Made by a program: the position numbers and the translations under genes. The notes below the pieces were generated by a model. That model saw only the letters and a program-made list of their open reading frames with translations, ran no database searches and was not told the DNA's origin. From Nonlabens ponticola (lineage in GTDB: Bacteria > Bacteroidota > Bacteroidia > Flavobacteriales > Flavobacteriaceae): a stretch of DNA of 32,000 bases. Shown here in pieces: positions 761 through 32,000 of this stretch (its first letter is position 1; each line of letters starts with the position of its first letter). The stretch is taken from NCBI RefSeq assembly GCF_003966335.1, contig NZ_CP034549.1, positions 2,670,001 through 2,702,000 of the forward strand. The letters run 5' to 3'.

Positions 761-1150
761 ATGGCTCATTATAAATCCTTTGAAGAATTAGAAATTTGGC
801 AGCGTGCAAGAATTATTTGTGACGATGTTTATAATCTTTACCTCGTCAGTGATTTGCAAAAAGATTATGGGCTTTGGAATCAGATTAATAAATCATCCGG
901 CTCCATAATGGACAACATTGCAGAAGGTTTTGATAGAGATGGAAACCGAGAGTTTATCCAGTTTTTAAGTATTTCAAAAGCAAGTTGTGGTGAAGCAAAA
1001 TCACAACTATATCGATGTTTTGATAGAAAATATCTTGAGCCACAAGAGTTTGAAGATATTAAACGAAAGATGGAAGAATGTAAAGCACAAATTGCTGGCT
1101 TTATGAAATATCTCAAAAACAGTGATAGAAAGGGAAACAAATACGATTAG
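761..1150 (+). CDS. Four-helix-bundle protein (23S rRNA intervening-sequence protein / Avd-like family)
   Basis: 129 aa. The segments FEELEIWQRA, SGSIMDNIAEGF, EFIQFLSISKASCGEAKSQL match the family signature as I recall it. It is a small stand-alone gene between ffh and folD. Confidence 0.8.
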   Translation: MAHYKSFEELEIWQRARIICDDVYNLYLVSDLQKDYGLWNQINKSSGSIMDNIAEGFDRDGNREFIQFLSISKASCGEAKSQLYRCFDRKYLEPQEFEDIKRKMEECKAQIAGFMKYLKNSDRKGNKYD

Positions 1151-25639: not shown

Positions 25640-26953
25640 ATGTTCACTCAAAGAAAACTAAGCAGTGTCTACTGGATATTCTTGATCACCATTATTCTAT
25701 TGGTGCTGGCAAAGGCATTGACTGTACTCTATTATATTGACCGGCAAAAAGATGACGCACGATATGTCAACCTTTCTGGAAGACAACGCATGTTGAGCCA
25801 ACGTATTACTAAACAGCTATTGTATCTCAACCTTAAGGACGATACCGCCGTTTATCCATATAATATGGACAGCCTGCAGATAAGCTTGACCGAATGGAAA
25901 GACGCACAGCAACTATTGGTAAATGAAGCTGCACCACAATATGACAATGAAGAGCTATCTACCCTTCTAGAGAATGCCCTGGTATCCATCAACGATATAG
26001 AAGATGAGGTTCAAAATGTACTAACAAATGAATCTAAAGAAGCTATAAAGAGGGCTACGGTCACCGCATCAAACAGAGAGGTGCGTTTTCTTAAAAATAT
26101 GGATAGCGCCACAAATTTATTTCAACAGGAAGCAGAGTCTAAAACGGCTCAATCTCGCAATGTTGCCTTAATTCTAGCAGTTATAAGCCTTTTAGTTATT
26201 CTTCTAGAATTCATGTTAATAGTGCTTCCATCGTTTAAAGCGCTTTTTGCCAAAAATGCCCAACTAGAGCAAGCTAATAAGCAATTATCAGAATTTGCGC
26301 AGATAACCGCGCATAACTTGCGATCACCCATTGGGAACCTCACATTTTTAAGCAACTTTTATAAGAATGCAGAATCTGACGAAGAGAAGACAGAGTTATT
26401 TGAAAAATTTGATATTGTAATAGGTCACCTAAGTGAGACCATAGATGTGCTCATCGACAGCATCAAAATCAAGGCACATACAAATGTAGAATTCGAAACC
26501 TTATCTTTTGAAAAGACACTAGATCATACCATGCAATTACTGTATGCAGACCTAAAACGAACTAACGCAACTGTAAAAGCTGATTTTTCTAAGGCACCGA
26601 CCATTACATACCACAAAATATATCTTGATAGTATTTTCCTTAACTTGATGACCAATAGTATTAAATATAGAAGTCAAAAAAGAGAACTGATCATTGTTGT
26701 AAGAACAGTTTATCACAAGGATCAAACCGTGATGTATTTTACTGACAATGGCCAAGGTATAGATTTAGATCGCCAGGGCGACAAAATCTTTAATTTAGGA
26801 AAAACCTTTCACCGCAATGCAGACGCCAAAGGTATAGGCTTATTCATGACACGCAACCAGATTCAAGCTTTAGGTGGCAGTATTGATGTGACGAGTAAAC
26901 CCGATGAAGGAACAACATTTATAGCAACTTTTAAAAATCACAATGGAGACTAA
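25640..26953 (+). CDS. Sensor histidine kinase with periplasmic PilJ/NarX-type N-terminal sensing domain
   Basis: 437 aa. Two TM segments bracket a ~150-aa loop that opens with LSGRQRMLSQRITKQ (the type IV pili methyl-accepting transducer N-terminal / nitrate-sensor-like motif). H-box ITAHNLRSPIGNL. HATPase blocks (NLMTNSIKY, DNGQGID, GIGLF). Confidence 0.85.
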   Translation: MFTQRKLSSVYWIFLITIILLVLAKALTVLYYIDRQKDDARYVNLSGRQRMLSQRITKQLLYLNLKDDTAVYPYNMDSLQISLTEWKDAQQLLVNEAAPQYDNEELSTLLENALVSINDIEDEVQNVLTNESKEAIKRATVTASNREVRFLKNMDSATNLFQQEAESKTAQSRNVALILAVISLLVILLEFMLIVLPSFKALFAKNAQLEQANKQLSEFAQITAHNLRSPIGNLTFLSNFYKNAESDEEKTELFEKFDIVIGHLSETIDVLIDSIKIKAHTNVEFETLSFEKTLDHTMQLLYADLKRTNATVKADFSKAPTITYHKIYLDSIFLNLMTNSIKYRSQKRELIIVVRTVYHKDQTVMYFTDNGQGIDLDRQGDKIFNLGKTFHRNADAKGIGLFMTRNQIQALGGSIDVTSKPDEGTTFIATFKNHNGD

Positions 26954-27362
26954 ACCATTTGTAATAAGCCTTATTGACGATGATGAGATCTACCAGTACG
27001 GTTTTAAACGCACCATAAACATTACCAAATTTGCTAAGAAATTACTGATTTTTAGCGATGGTGAACAGGCGATCAATTTTCTCATTGATAACATAGCCAA
27101 TGCTAGTGAATTGCCAGATGTGATTTTTCTAGATATCAACATGCCTATCATGGATGGTTTCCAGTTTATGGAAGAGTACGTGAAAATAAAACCACGAGTA
27201 GGTAAACCGATTACTATTTATATGGTATCATCTTCCATCGATCCTGCAGACATAGAAAGAGCACAAGAGATATCAGACATTTCTGACTACATCATCAAGC
27301 CCATTCAGCTTGAAACGCTAGAAGAAATAATCATAGAGCTTGAAAAAAAATACAATGATTAA
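26943..27362 (+). CDS. Stand-alone response regulator receiver (CheY-like, no output domain)
   Basis: 139 aa. LIDDDE, phospho-acceptor FLDINMPIMDG, YIIKP. Overlaps the kinase gene by 11 nt, which suggests translational coupling. Confidence 0.85.
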   Translation: METKPFVISLIDDDEIYQYGFKRTINITKFAKKLLIFSDGEQAINFLIDNIANASELPDVIFLDINMPIMDGFQFMEEYVKIKPRVGKPITIYMVSSSIDPADIERAQEISDISDYIIKPIQLETLEEIIIELEKKYND

Positions 27363-27567
27363 GCTGTATTAATTGGGATGAACAGTGTCATTGTATTTTC
27401 AGATCTCTTCATTCTCATGAATCAAATGCTCTAGAATCTTACTAGGGTAAATGTTATAATAAATTAAAAGTCAAGGATAACAAGGTCACTAGTTTGTACT
27501 TTGAACAAGTCAAACTGATAGGGGTTTGCAAACTCAAAATAAAAACTAACTGATTAATTCTACCATC

Positions 27568-28410
27568 ATGACTTTACAGGATTTAGGAAATTCAAATTTT
27601 GAAAACTACATCGGTGCTTCCGAAGGTCTGTCCGAAATGGCTTACCAGATGACATCGCATGTACTTACTTTAGGCTATGCAGTTATGCTAGCTGGACTGC
27701 TTTACTTCGTTTTAACCATAAAACAAGTATCTCAAAAATATAGAATGTCAAATATCTTATCGGTTGTGGTAATGGTATCAGCATTTCTTCTACTTTATGC
27801 ACAGGCAAACAACTGGACAACCAGCTTTGAGTTTGATGCAGAGCGTGGTCGCTATTTTCTTGCTGATGGTGAGGACCTTTTCAACAATGGGTATCGTTAC
27901 CTCAACTGGTTGATTGACGTACCAATGCTGTTATTCCAGATACTATTTGTAGTTTCCTTGACTAAATCTAAGTTGTCATCAGTAAGAAACCAATTCTGGT
28001 TCTCTGGTGTAATGATGATCGTTACTGGATATATTGGACAATTCTATGAAGTTTCTAACTTGACGTTATTCCTAGTTTGGGGTGCTGTCTCTACAATATT
28101 CTTCTTACATGTTCTTTACTTAATGAAGAAAGTAATTAATGAAGGTAAAGAAGGAATTCCTGCCAAGGGTCAGAAGATCTTAAACAACATTTGGATTTTG
28201 TTCTTGATTTCATGGATGCTATATCCAGGTGCATACTTGATGCCTTATCTTGGTGGTGTCGATGGATTCCTATACAACGAGAGCGGTATTGTAGGTCGTC
28301 AAATGACTTACACCATTGCAGATGTTACTTCTAAAGTAATCTACGGTGTACTTTTAGGTAACCTAGCAATGTTCTTGAGTAAAGAAGAAGGTTACAAGGT
28401 AACTGACTAA
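27568..28410 (+). CDS. Microbial rhodopsin, NDQ-motif light-driven sodium pump (NaR, KR2-like)
   Basis: 280 aa with 7 hydrophobic helices. Helix C RYLNWLIDVPMLLFQ gives N113 (27904), D117 (27916) and Q124 (27937) at the bacteriorhodopsin D85/T89/D96 positions. Schiff-base Lys K256 lies in ADVTSKVIYG (28333). Long stretches are identical to KR2 as I remember it. Confidence 0.93.
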   Translation: MTLQDLGNSNFENYIGASEGLSEMAYQMTSHVLTLGYAVMLAGLLYFVLTIKQVSQKYRMSNILSVVVMVSAFLLLYAQANNWTTSFEFDAERGRYFLADGEDLFNNGYRYLNWLIDVPMLLFQILFVVSLTKSKLSSVRNQFWFSGVMMIVTGYIGQFYEVSNLTLFLVWGAVSTIFFLHVLYLMKKVINEGKEGIPAKGQKILNNIWILFLISWMLYPGAYLMPYLGGVDGFLYNESGIVGRQMTYTIADVTSKVIYGVLLGNLAMFLSKEEGYKVTD

Positions 28411-28432
28411 TATTCCTTATCAATACAGTATT

Positions 28433-28459
28433 AAAAGGATGCCATGCGGCATCCTTTTT
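28433..28459 (+). terminator. Rho-independent terminator after the rhodopsin gene
   Basis: AAAAGGATGCC (28433-28443) pairs with GGCATCCTTTT (28448-28458) around a 4-nt loop ATGC; the trailing T-run ends at 28459. Confidence 0.85.
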
Positions 28460-28489
28460 GCTCTTAAAACATAACTAACACCAATTTTG

Positions 28490-28501: not shown

Positions 28502-28912
28502 ATGCATTCATGGACACATAGAATTCTTGCTATCGCGATGTCGCTGCTGCTGCTAGGCACAACGACCTCGTTTAGTATTGATGCCCATGTGTGCGGCGGT
28601 GAGATTGTAGACATCTCACTCACAAACGATAGTGACTGCAACATGCAAATGATGGATCATGAGATGCATGACCTCATGAAAAAAATGGGTTGTTGTCAAG
28701 ATCACAATCTAGCATCAATAGGTCAGGACGATGTGCAACCATCCATGAGTGACTTCTCGCTGGATCAACAACAATTCATAATAGCATTCACGCATTCTTA
28801 TGTAGTTCAATACGTGCTGCCCGCAACTGCCGCAACAAGCTATAGTTCTAATCCAGAGCCGCCATTGCCGCGGCAACCGCTATACATACTACACGAGTCC
28901 TACCTTATTTGA
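28502..28912 (+). CDS. Small Cys/His-rich secreted protein, HYC_CC_PP-like (function unknown)
   Basis: 136 aa. N-terminal hydrophobic segment. DAHVCGG, then MGCCQDH, then PEPPLP. This order (H-x-C, CC, PP) matches the Bacteroidota HYC_CC_PP family as I recall it. Confidence 0.5.
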   Translation: MHSWTHRILAIAMSLLLLGTTTSFSIDAHVCGGEIVDISLTNDSDCNMQMMDHEMHDLMKKMGCCQDHNLASIGQDDVQPSMSDFSLDQQQFIIAFTHSYVVQYVLPATAATSYSSNPEPPLPRQPLYILHESYLI

Positions 28913-28978
28913 TAAAACGGAATTCATCATCATAGCTGTGCGCTAGCACAGGATTATTCCATTTTATTAAATACGACA

Positions 28979-29743
28979 ATGAAACAATATTTATTATTGG
29001 CTGGTTTGGTTTTCGCTTTCGCGAAAGCGCATTCACAAGGACCACCCATAACAGCAGACAAGCCCATCATGTTAGGTGGAGGCAGTTTTACAACAAAAAC
29101 ATTAACCGAAATACGTAACACAGAGCGAGGCACCGCCATTCATATACCGCTCATGTTGCATTATCTACCTACGGCAAACAGTCTAATAGCAGTACACTTG
29201 CCCTACATCAATTACGATTTGCAAGACGCATCTGGTAGCGACCTGGCTGATGTCAAAATCATGGGTAAGTACCAATTTTATCGCAAGGATGGTACCGGCA
29301 GGACATTCCGTATGGTGGCCAAAACCTTACAGACACTACCTACAGGTCCAGAACTGGATCTTATGGATTTGAGTACTGGTAAATACGCAGGATACTACGG
29401 TCTGGTATCGGGTCTTGAGACACTTAAATACGGTATTTCAACTGAGATAGGTTACAACTGGCAACCTGATGGTACGTTGGATGAATTCAGGACAAAGCTA
29501 GGTTTTGGACTACCACTACTCAAGCCACAATATCCTAATAAACAAGTAAACCTTTATTTTGAATATACCAGCGCCTGGTTGCATGAACGTGACTGGTACC
29601 AACTGTTGTATTCTCAAGGTATTCAATATGCGCGCAAGAACATCACCTTTGATCTTGCCGTGCAATTACCATTAGTACAAGAAATCGCGCCTGACCGCGC
29701 ACTCAATTATTCTGTGTTTCTAGGAACACGCTACACATTTTAA
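28979..29743 (+). CDS. Outer-membrane beta-barrel protein (MetA-pathway 'transporter'-like family, tentative)
   Basis: 254 aa. Signal peptide. Mature N-terminus GPPITADKP. Alternating amphipathic strands. C-terminal aromatic residue (RYTF). Confidence 0.55.
   Translation: MKQYLLLAGLVFAFAKAHSQGPPITADKPIMLGGGSFTTKTLTEIRNTERGTAIHIPLMLHYLPTANSLIAVHLPYINYDLQDASGSDLADVKIMGKYQFYRKDGTGRTFRMVAKTLQTLPTGPELDLMDLSTGKYAGYYGLVSGLETLKYGISTEIGYNWQPDGTLDEFRTKLGFGLPLLKPQYPNKQVNLYFEYTSAWLHERDWYQLLYSQGIQYARKNITFDLAVQLPLVQEIAPDRALNYSVFLGTRYTF
29015..29028. repeat. Palindrome copy 9 (intragenic): GCTTTCGCGAAAGC
   Basis: Perfect 14-mer (16 bp with flanks) inside the signal-peptide coding region. Read as AFAKA (VFAFAKAHSQ). 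Confidence 0.9.
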
Positions 29744-29744
29744 A

Positions 29745-30410
29745 ATGACTATTATGAAAAATATACAGATGATTACCGCATTTCTTTTTTGCTTTTTTGC
29801 TTTCACTTCGACAAGCTCAGCACAGAGCGCGAAAGCGGACGCCCAAATATCCAAAGAACGAGACCAATTTGAAGTACAAGTCGATGGGCTTGGTTGCCCA
29901 TTTTGTGCGTACGGTCTAGAAAAAAAATTCAAAGAATTTAAAGGCATCAAGGATGTCAAGATTGACATCGAGACTGGTGACTTCTCATTCTCGTATCCTG
30001 CAAGCAAGGAACTAACCATGCAAGCAGTGACTGAGCAGGTTAAGAAAGCCGGGTACACACCACAAACAGCTAAAATCGTAAGAGCAAACGGCACCATTGA
30101 GACCAATGAACCTAAAGCAACCGTAGCAGAACTAGGTACATTGACCACGTCAACAATGATGGTAAACGGTAAATGCGGTATGTGTAAGGCACGCATCGAG
30201 AAAACCGTTGCAGATTTACCTGGCGTTCTAGATGCCTCATGGGATGTGAAAACTAAGCAACTTGTGGTGAATCACGATGCTACCATGACCAATAAAGCTG
30301 CCATTTCCAAAGAGCTAGCAGCCGTAGGTCACGATACTAAATCCAATAAGGCTAGCGATGCGACTTATGATGCACTACCAGCATGCTGCCACTATAAACG
30401 AGCTATATAA
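29745..30410 (+). CDS. Periplasmic protein with two heavy-metal-associated (HMA) domains and a C-terminal CC motif
   Basis: 221 aa. Signal peptide. VDGLGCPFCAYGLEKK and VNGKCGMCKARIEK (CxxC metal sites). C-terminus PACCHYKRAI. Starts 2 nt after the upstream stop. Confidence 0.75.
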   Translation: MTIMKNIQMITAFLFCFFAFTSTSSAQSAKADAQISKERDQFEVQVDGLGCPFCAYGLEKKFKEFKGIKDVKIDIETGDFSFSYPASKELTMQAVTEQVKKAGYTPQTAKIVRANGTIETNEPKATVAELGTLTTSTMMVNGKCGMCKARIEKTVADLPGVLDASWDVKTKQLVVNHDATMTNKAAISKELAAVGHDTKSNKASDATYDALPACCHYKRAI

Positions 30411-31237
30411 TGAAGAAGTTTTTATACATCATCCCGATTGTTATCGGGATGATTTCTTGTAAAGAAGATAAACCAATTGTTATGGAATGGCAATTGGACA
30501 AAGTCATTGAATTTGATGGTATCAACCCTATAGGATTGGCGAGCTATGGTGAGAACATCGCTATTAGTGATGGAGATCATAATCGGCTCGTAATGATTGA
30601 TCAAGACGGCACCCTAATCAGTGAGGTAGCAGATTTTGATCGTCCCATGCACATCGATGTTAAAAATGACATCATTTATGTTCCAGAATATGGTCGTGAC
30701 TCTATCGCAATGGTTGCCAATCAAGAAAGATCCTACCTTAAGTTATCAGACTCGCTGGATGCACCAGCTGGCATAAGTATTTTCAATAATGAAATTGCCA
30801 TTGCAGACTTTTACAACAACAAGATTCATTACAATGATGGATCTAGCTGGTCAAGCTTTGGTAAAGAAGGAAAGGCGCTAGGCGACTTCTACTACCCTAC
30901 TGATGTTCAAATTACTGATGATTATATCTATGTAGCTGATGCTTATAACAATCGCGGTCAAGTATTTGACAAATCAGGTAAGGTGATAAAAGCCTTCGGC
31001 GAGGATCAAAATTTCAACGCTGCTACAGGCATTTACGTGAGCGACCAAGAGATTTTCCTGACGGACTTTGAGAACAATCGTGTGGTCATTTTCAGTAAAG
31101 ATTATACCGTCCAGCAAGTTATTGAATCAGGAATTGACAAACCTACTGATATGATTGTGGTAGATAATCAACTGTTTATCACTAATTATAGAAAAGGGGA
31201 GTTAGTGATTTATAAGCTGCAACAAGTATCTAGTTAA
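30410..31237 (+). CDS. NHL-repeat / six-bladed beta-propeller lipoprotein
   Basis: 275 aa. Lipobox (VIGMISC). About 6 repeats of the type FDRPMHIDV, LDAPAGISI, FYYPTDVQI, FNAATGIYV, IDKPTDMIV, followed by Y/F-V-x-D. Its ATG overlaps the upstream stop by 1 nt. Confidence 0.7.
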   Translation: MKKFLYIIPIVIGMISCKEDKPIVMEWQLDKVIEFDGINPIGLASYGENIAISDGDHNRLVMIDQDGTLISEVADFDRPMHIDVKNDIIYVPEYGRDSIAMVANQERSYLKLSDSLDAPAGISIFNNEIAIADFYNNKIHYNDGSSWSSFGKEGKALGDFYYPTDVQITDDYIYVADAYNNRGQVFDKSGKVIKAFGEDQNFNAATGIYVSDQEIFLTDFENNRVVIFSKDYTVQQVIESGIDKPTDMIVVDNQLFITNYRKGELVIYKLQQVSS

Positions 31238-31255
31238 ATTGATTTTGTTGATTAC

Positions 31256-31269
31256 GCTTTCGCGAAAGC
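31256..31269. repeat. Palindrome copy 10: ACGCTTTCGCGAAAGCGT (18-bp perfect palindrome, 31254-31271)
   Basis: Perfect copy 19 bp after the NHL gene stop and 26 bp before the next ATG. The upstream flank TTAC is the reverse of the usual GTAA extension. Confidence 0.9.
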
Positions 31270-31294
31270 GTGTTCCCTCTAAACCAATTCAAAT

Positions 31295-32000
31295 ATGACC
31301 ATGAAACACACTTATAACATTGAAGGAATGACCTGCACGAGCTGCAGTGCTGCCGTTGAGAAGTCGCTTAAAAAAGTTGCTGGTATCGACGAGGTAAGCG
31401 TTGATCTGGAAAACAAACAAGCAACGGTAGAAATGAAGCAACATGTGGCTCTATCTGAGCTGCGTGAGACTTTGCCTTCAAAATATTCCATTTCTCAAGT
31501 TGAGGAAACAAACAATTTTAATAATACAGGCGCGACCTCAACTACCATGATGTCCAACAATGTAGAAGAGAGTAAATGGCAACAATTAAAACCGTTATTC
31601 TTGATTTTGGGATATATCGCGGCGGCTACAATCTTGCTCAATTACTCACGTGATAATTGGAATGGGGCGATGCTGGATTTTATGGGATTGTTCTTTATCG
31701 TTTTTAGCTTTTTCAAGATTCTTGATCTTCAAGGTTTTCCTGAAAGCTTTAAAATGTACGATCCACTTGCCAAGATCTTTCCGGCATACGGCTGGATCTA
31801 TCCGTTTATAGAAACAGCACTTGGATTGATGTTCTTGATGCGATTTGAGATTGACATTGCTTTGATAATCACTTTAGTTATCTTGGGAATAACCACTGTA
31901 GGCGTGACTAAAACATTGTTGGATAAAAAATCCATTCAATGTGCTTGTCTGGGAACGGCACTCAAATTACCTATGACCCAAGCTACCTTTATTGAGAACG
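31295..32000 (+). CDS. HMA domain fused to a MauE/DoxX-like redox-associated membrane domain (3' end cut by window edge)
   Basis: Not in the ORF track because no stop is reached. The frame from ATG 31295 stays open to 32000. N-terminus YNIEGMTCTSCSAAVEKSLKKV (classic GMTCxxC). Then hydrophobic helices and IQCACLG, as in the MauE family. Confidence 0.75.
   Translation, partial: MTMKHTYNIEGMTCTSCSAAVEKSLKKVAGIDEVSVDLENKQATVEMKQHVALSELRETLPSKYSISQVEETNNFNNTGATSTTMMSNNVEESKWQQLKPLFLILGYIAAATILLNYSRDNWNGAMLDFMGLFFIVFSFFKILDLQGFPESFKMYDPLAKIFPAYGWIYPFIETALGLMFLMRFEIDIALIITLVILGITTVGVTKTLLDKKSIQCACLGTALKLPMTQATFIEN

Follow-up and report, generated by a model that had tools for sequence, protein, structure and literature searches.

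The rhodopsin gene found in a 32,000-nt stretch of DNA of the marine flavobacterium Nonlabens ponticola (hereafter referred to as the window) almost certainly codes, judged by its sequence, for a Subgroup 1 sodium-pumping rhodopsin (NaR) with the NDQ motif, and the protein very probably pumps Na+ outward in the light. It is an uncharacterised yet canonical orthologue of KR2, the rhodopsin 2 of Krokinobacter/Dokdonia eikasta. The picture that the data favor with high confidence is that of a KR2-type outward Na+ pump whose retinal would be supplied by a Blh protein encoded elsewhere and whose gene would form a unit of its own. The family, its motif, structures and mechanism are already known, in line with an earlier note on this DNA that saw nothing novel in the class, and the sequence itself has been public before, with a generic name.

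The gene is present exactly as that note had described it, with a product of 280 aa. It starts with ATG, is intact and includes its stop codon within the span listed in Table 1. The product matches the Pfam family PF01036 (Bac_rhodopsin) with E = 1.1e-52 over profile positions 2-221 of 224; no NCBIfam model matching it was found. In a search of PDB, KR2 chains matched the protein without gaps over residues 4-274 (E = 6e-143, 478 bits), and the best 15 matches were all chains of KR2 or other NaRs, with E values of ~1e-143 to 1e-137. After the NaR chains, bit scores drop sharply, to 166 for NTQ chloride pumps, 159 for ErNaR and 126 for xanthorhodopsin, and are lower still for Gloeobacter rhodopsin (124) and proteorhodopsins (~44). 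By pairwise scores, the protein is closer to rhodopsins with demonstrated Na+ pumping than to those that pump Cl- or H+. A full-length match of 100% identity was obtained to the NCBI entry P0001, 'bacteriorhodopsin [Nonlabens ponticola]', which is also in UniRef; public names of the protein are generic, either 'bacteriorhodopsin' or 'rhodopsin'. In the searchable literature, N. ponticola is mentioned by one paper, in a mere citation of the species description.

Named relatives revealed by BLASTP include the 'sodium ion rhodopsin' NM-R2 of N. marinus S1-08 (84% identity, 82% in a global alignment), the 'sodium ion rhodopsin' NyNaR of Nonlabens sp. YIK11 (82%), a protein of N. agnitus (82%), and KR2 with the Dokdonia NaRs (79-80%). 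NM-R2 and NyNaR are the closest named relatives, with all key residues identical, and Na+ transport by NyNaR of YIK11 has been demonstrated experimentally (PMC5531490). When aligned with KR2 (PDB 3X3B, 4XTL, 6REW and further entries), the protein is identical at 79% of 275 positions, and the single gap corresponds to one extra N-terminal residue in the N. ponticola protein. The two proteins differ by 58 substitutions, none of which falls on a residue with a known role.

Table 1. Features of the window, with positions counted from its first letter, and residues of the N. ponticola NaR equivalent to those of bacteriorhodopsin (BR) and KR2.
Feature	Position	Strand	BR / KR2 residue	Basis
'23S rRNA-intervening sequence protein' family gene, stand-alone	761-1150	+		PF05635, 4.4e-31
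tmRNA (ssrA), tag peptide GENNYALAA	20774-21172	+		Rfam 131.5 bits; ARAGORN
Histidine kinase (HK), 437 aa, PilJ/NarX-like N-terminal region and HATPase_c	25640-26953	+		Pfam
Receiver-only response regulator (RR), 139 aa, without DNA-binding output domain	26943-27362	+		Pfam
Intergenic region, 205 bp, A+T-rich, presumed to contain the NaR promoter	27363-27567	+		sequence read
NaR gene (NDQ-motif Subgroup 1 sodium-pumping rhodopsin)	27568-28410	+		ORF, Pfam, KR2 PDB match, 100% database identity
Helix C segment RYLNWLIDVPMLLFQ	27895-27939	+		translation; alignment to BR, KR2
R110	27895-27897	+	R82 / R109	
N113	27904-27906	+	D85 / N112	
D117	27916-27918	+	T89 / D116	
Q124	27937-27939	+	D96 / Q123	
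ADVTSKVIYG	28318-28347	+		translation
Helix G codons D252-V-T-S255-K256	28321-28335	+		translation; alignment to BR, KR2
D252, counterion		+	D212 / D251	
K256, retinal Schiff-base lysine	28333-28335	+	K216 / K255	
Terminator-like hairpin, starts 17 nt past NaR stop	28427-28462	+		RNA fold
HYC_CC_PP family protein, His/Cys-rich	28502-28912	+		NF047658
Rest of metal cluster: 254-aa protein without family match; two-HMA-domain protein; NHL-repeat protein		+		
Last gene, partial: heavy-metal-binding CxxC start (MTCTSC), then hydrophobic membrane-like sequence; leaves window end		+		
Palindrome, 12-nt cores	2168, 5157, 7883, 12450, 16650, 19813, 22256, 25312, 29016, 31257			

Positions were mapped with a MAFFT alignment of the N. 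ponticola NaR, KR2, NM-R2 and bacteriorhodopsin (BR), the BR reference being residue-for-residue identical to PDB 1o0a, residues 1-249. N113, D117 and Q124 fall in the columns of BR D85, T89 and D96, as the earlier note had proposed, and no misalignment of the three was seen; K256, which it had taken for the retinal lysine, is aligned with the lysines of both BR and KR2. With the triad and lysine in place and a score of 478 bits for KR2 compared with 166 bits for NTQ pumps, its KR2-type NaR assignment is well supported at the level of sequence. The DTE segment of proteorhodopsin, RYIDWLLTVPLLICE, lines up likewise with the NDQ positions. Six blocks named in that note as identical to KR2 (LFNNGYRYLNWLIDVPMLLFQILFVVSL, VRNQFWFSG, GQFYEVSN, KKVINEGKEG, NIWILFLISW and LYPGAYLMPYL) all proved to be exact substrings of KR2, each offset by one residue. 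Asn, Asp and Gln where BR has D85, T89 and D96 are the definition of the NaR motif (PMC10608830, PMC4600240).

Sequence features outside the motif were compared using 27 KR2 residues chosen from structural and mutagenesis literature, with roles summarised in PMC10608830 and PMC11006869. All 27 are kept in the N. ponticola NaR alignment: E11, Y25, H30, N61, S70, L74, Q78, T83, F86, D102, R109, N112, W113, D116, L120, Q123, G153, Y154, E160, W215, Y218, P219, R243, D251, S254, K255 and G263 (KR2 numbering). In KR2, E11, E160 and R243 form the extracellular cluster, N61 and G263 the cytoplasmic filter, Y25, T83, F86 and D102 the interprotomer Na+ site, and H30 and Y154 pentamer contacts (PMC10608830, PMC11006869). 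Residues of the last two groups are all present (Y26, T84, F87, D103, H31 and Y155), and the protein is probably a pentamer, with H31 and Y155 at its contacts and an interprotomer Na+ site predicted at Y26, T84, F87 and D103. Also present are D252, R110 and S71, which are family-invariant and whose KR2 counterparts D251, R109 and S70 are required for Na+ transport. The ion selectivity of NaRs can be altered by a single substitution, for example Q123E or a change of N61 or G263 (PMC10608830); none of these is found in the N. ponticola NaR.

A family alignment of 204 unique members, drawn from 119 homologues in databases and from 85 genomic loci, was used to place the protein among its relatives. 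D252 and K256 are invariant throughout. The sole departure from the ≥90% consensus of these relatives is a conservative V to I change at position 241. T254, which precedes S255-K256 and stands where KR2 has S253, is one of the less common residues at a site that varies naturally (C in 84 members, S in 68, A in 23 and T in 14 of the 204). Subgroups 1 and 2 are split by the residue at the KR2 L74 position, which is Leu/Ile in the former and Glu in the latter (PMC11006869). The N. ponticola NaR has L75 at this position and is thus placed in NDQ Subgroup 1. The Subgroup 2 proteins ErNaR and SrNaR likewise carry the NDQ motif and export Na+ in the light, as is predicted for the N. ponticola NaR, but their Glu provides an extra counterion, and the score of ErNaR against the N. 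ponticola NaR is 159 bits compared to 478 for KR2. The NTQ chloride pumps (NM-R3/ClR) belong to the same 'omega rhodopsin' group and have N and Q at motif positions 1 and 3; they differ by a T instead of D at position 2, and their identity to the N. ponticola NaR is only ~37% (166 bits).

The same alignment revealed that the two sites of the cytoplasmic filter, 62 and 264 (KR2 N61 and G263), co-vary: the pair is N/G in 121 and S/T in 66 of the 204 unique NaRs, with few mixed pairs. The N. ponticola NaR has the N/G pair of the KR2 type. NaRs of the S/T class may differ from the N/G class in cation selectivity.

By conservation with KR2, the following pumping cycle can be proposed. K256 would bind all-trans retinal, produced by the Blh dioxygenase, through a protonated Schiff base. 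Under light the retinal would isomerise to the 13-cis form, and the Schiff-base proton would move to D117. With the proton on D117 the electrostatic barrier would be gone, so that Na+ could pass the Schiff base. The ion would be taken up through the cytoplasmic entrance formed by N62, G264 and Q124 and would then move past the neutral Schiff base. Na+ would be transiently bound in the O state by N113 and D252 together with S71, assisted by a flip of N113-L75, and would leave on the extracellular side by way of R110 and Q79 and of the E12-E161-R244 cluster. When Na+ is absent, H+ would be pumped instead, as in KR2.

Outward transport of Na+, with H+ pumped when Na+ is not available, is known for NDQ NaRs (PMC10608830). 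It is highly improbable that the N. ponticola rhodopsin acts in vivo mainly as an outward H+ pump, or as a pump of both Na+ and H+ in which H+ has a strong share, even though KR2-type Subgroup 1 NaRs do pump H+ without Na+ and the Na+/H+ ratio varies among NaRs (PMC10608830, PMC5531490, PMC11006869). The host is a seawater isolate, and Na+ is therefore plentiful; moreover, the residue whose mutation converts a NaR to an H+ pump (Q123D/E) is wild type. The residue H30 required for the H+ mode is also kept, and the dual ability is thus expected as a side activity, not as the main role.

A search for retinal and carotenoid biosynthesis genes among the 30 ORFs of the window scanned with Pfam and its 3' partial ORF revealed no match to BCD, phytoene synthase, phytoene desaturase or lycopene cyclase, in agreement with the earlier note's statement that no blh or crt genes lie within 32 kb. 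In total, the window has 37 ORFs of 100 aa or more; the seven not among these 30 are nested in longer ORFs or overlap them, and each is shorter than 160 aa. When Blh of YIK11 was used as a query, a 269-aa 'Brp/Blh family beta-carotene 15,15'-dioxygenase [Nonlabens ponticola]' (P0124; PF15461) was found with 42% identity. A Blh protein is recorded for N. ponticola and none is encoded in the window, which for blh supports the earlier note's proposal that genes elsewhere provide the chromophore. Blh is located within 10 kb of NaR in 6 of 85 loci only, and a NaR without a linked blh is thus the norm.

The NaR gene appears to stand as a unit by itself, preceded by an intergenic region of its own and followed by a hairpin, without a functional tie to its neighbours. 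A scan for sigma-70-type promoters, which does not cover those of Bacteroidota, found no site on the + strand upstream of NaR. The core stem of the hairpin is formed by AAAAGGATGCC (28433-28443) and GGCATCCTTTT (28448-28458) with an ATGC loop. Its folding energy is -18.2 kcal/mol (z = -4.95), and none of 200 shuffled sequences was equally stable; a scan with a simple terminator consensus did not flag it. Directly downstream, genes of a metal-handling cluster unrelated to rhodopsin occupy positions 28502-32000 of the + strand.

The gene neighbourhood was compared by tblastn over 85 NaR loci, each covering 10 kb on either side. No conserved gene order surrounds NaR. The NaR of Dokdonia sp. Dokd-P16 is only a few residues off KR2, and its gene is flanked by an ABC ATPase gene on one side and rpsO/pnp on the other. 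In N. marinus (L001 6761-8840), two BLUF genes are located upstream of NaR and genes of a LytTR response regulator and an HWE kinase downstream. In YIK11 (L004 3063-10840) and N. agnitus (L005 3075-10840), NaR is part of a larger photobiology cluster with the order BLUF, Blh, DUF2254, NTQ rhodopsin ClR, glycosyltransferase, NTP-transferase, BLUF and NaR; the LytTR response regulator and HWE kinase genes follow further downstream, and NaR is 5.6 kb from Blh. The NTQ rhodopsin of this cluster (272 aa, motif segment RYVNWMATIPCLLVQ) is of the Cl- pump type, and the glycosyltransferase and NTP-transferase belong to sugar metabolism. None of these neighbours (BLUF, Blh, ClR, LytTR or HWE) is present next to the N. 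ponticola NaR, and the metal genes downstream of it in the window gave no tblastn match in the 85 loci.

The recurrence of BLUF blue-light sensors beside pump rhodopsins suggests light-responsive regulation. It is conceivable, though very unlikely, that the N. ponticola NaR, being outside the neighbourhood seen in the three other Nonlabens and lying next to, and 3' of, the PilJ/NarX-type HK and the receiver-only RR, has come under ionic rather than light regulatory input while the protein is still an ordinary Na+ pump.

The genes immediately upstream of NaR code for the histidine kinase and response regulator. They overlap by 11 nt and are both co-directional with NaR. One could imagine that this pair controls NaR and forms with it a unit, particular to N. 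ponticola, that responds to salt or a signal, given the shared direction of the three genes, the absence of a predicted + strand terminator in the 205-bp gap before NaR, and the signalling genes (BLUF, LytTR response regulator, HWE kinase) that also adjoin NaR in other Nonlabens loci. In addition, NaCl induces the expression of NQ rhodopsin in N. dokdonensis, and light does so in YIK11 (PMC9728251). Such control is nevertheless scarcely credible. Over the 85 NaR loci there were only three matches to the HK and two to the RR, and these are all weak (28-37% identity) and lie 4-7 kb from NaR. An orthologous HK-RR pair (43-51% identity) is present in N. marinus and a metagenomic relative, but no rhodopsin gene adjoins it there, and an MscS-type channel gene follows instead. 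The RR also has no DNA-binding output domain. The rarity and weakness of the matches, together with the NaR-free orthologous pairs, indicate that the adjacency of HK-RR and NaR is peculiar to N. ponticola and is without comparative support for a functional link. A conserved HK-RR-NaR operon is ruled out by the tblastn analysis of 85 loci and the context of the HK orthologues.

Mobility of the locus was also considered and rejected. A genomic island at the tmRNA gene, 6.4 kb upstream of NaR, would have to do without a direct repeat of its 3' end, an integrase and a distinctive G+C content, none of which was found, and a search for mobile-element repeats on either side of NaR gave only short ones at chance level.

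The protein, generically named in public records, can be re-annotated with confidence as a Subgroup 1 NDQ sodium-pumping rhodopsin. For optogenetic screening it is a further natural variant of KR2 (79% identity), with T just ahead of S-K in helix G, and the locus is a small example of NaR as a single-gene unit in differing contexts inside one genus. The import beyond annotation is little, and no new mechanistic question is raised.

Two further observations were made in the compared loci. A gene for a DUF2254 membrane protein recurs beside rhodopsin genes (L004 4407-5558, L005 4419-5570 and L008 6490-7638, and also in L031, L034, L035 and L044 at ~10.9-12.9 kb). In Nonlabens its place is between the genes for ClR and Blh, in Aquimarina and Sungkyunkwania just 3' of NaR; its product may be a functional partner. 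In Gillisia limnaea DSM 15749, a partial second NaR-like segment (L020 12678-13007) is located ~1.9 kb downstream of an intact NaR. It is 70% identical to residues 165-274 of the N. ponticola NaR and looks like a duplicated gene fragment or a pseudogene.

Elsewhere in the window, the palindrome CTTTCGCGAAAG (extended consensus ~ACGCTTTCGCGAAAGCGTAA) occurs in 10 copies in 32 kb, compared to 0.08 expected by chance. Seven copies are placed between ORFs, six of them at most 50 nt from an ORF boundary, and three are inside ORFs. A 14-mer, GCTTTCGCGAAAGC, is present in 1-7 copies per locus in 16 loci, all labelled Nonlabens, Dokdonia or uncultured Flavobacteriaceae, and is absent from the remaining 69 NaR loci. 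The palindrome looks like a lineage-specific dispersed element, or else a terminator or operator motif. No rRNA lies near the stand-alone PF05635 gene at the beginning of the window, and the HK-RR locus of N. marinus has a homologue of this gene at its edge (L086 1-277).
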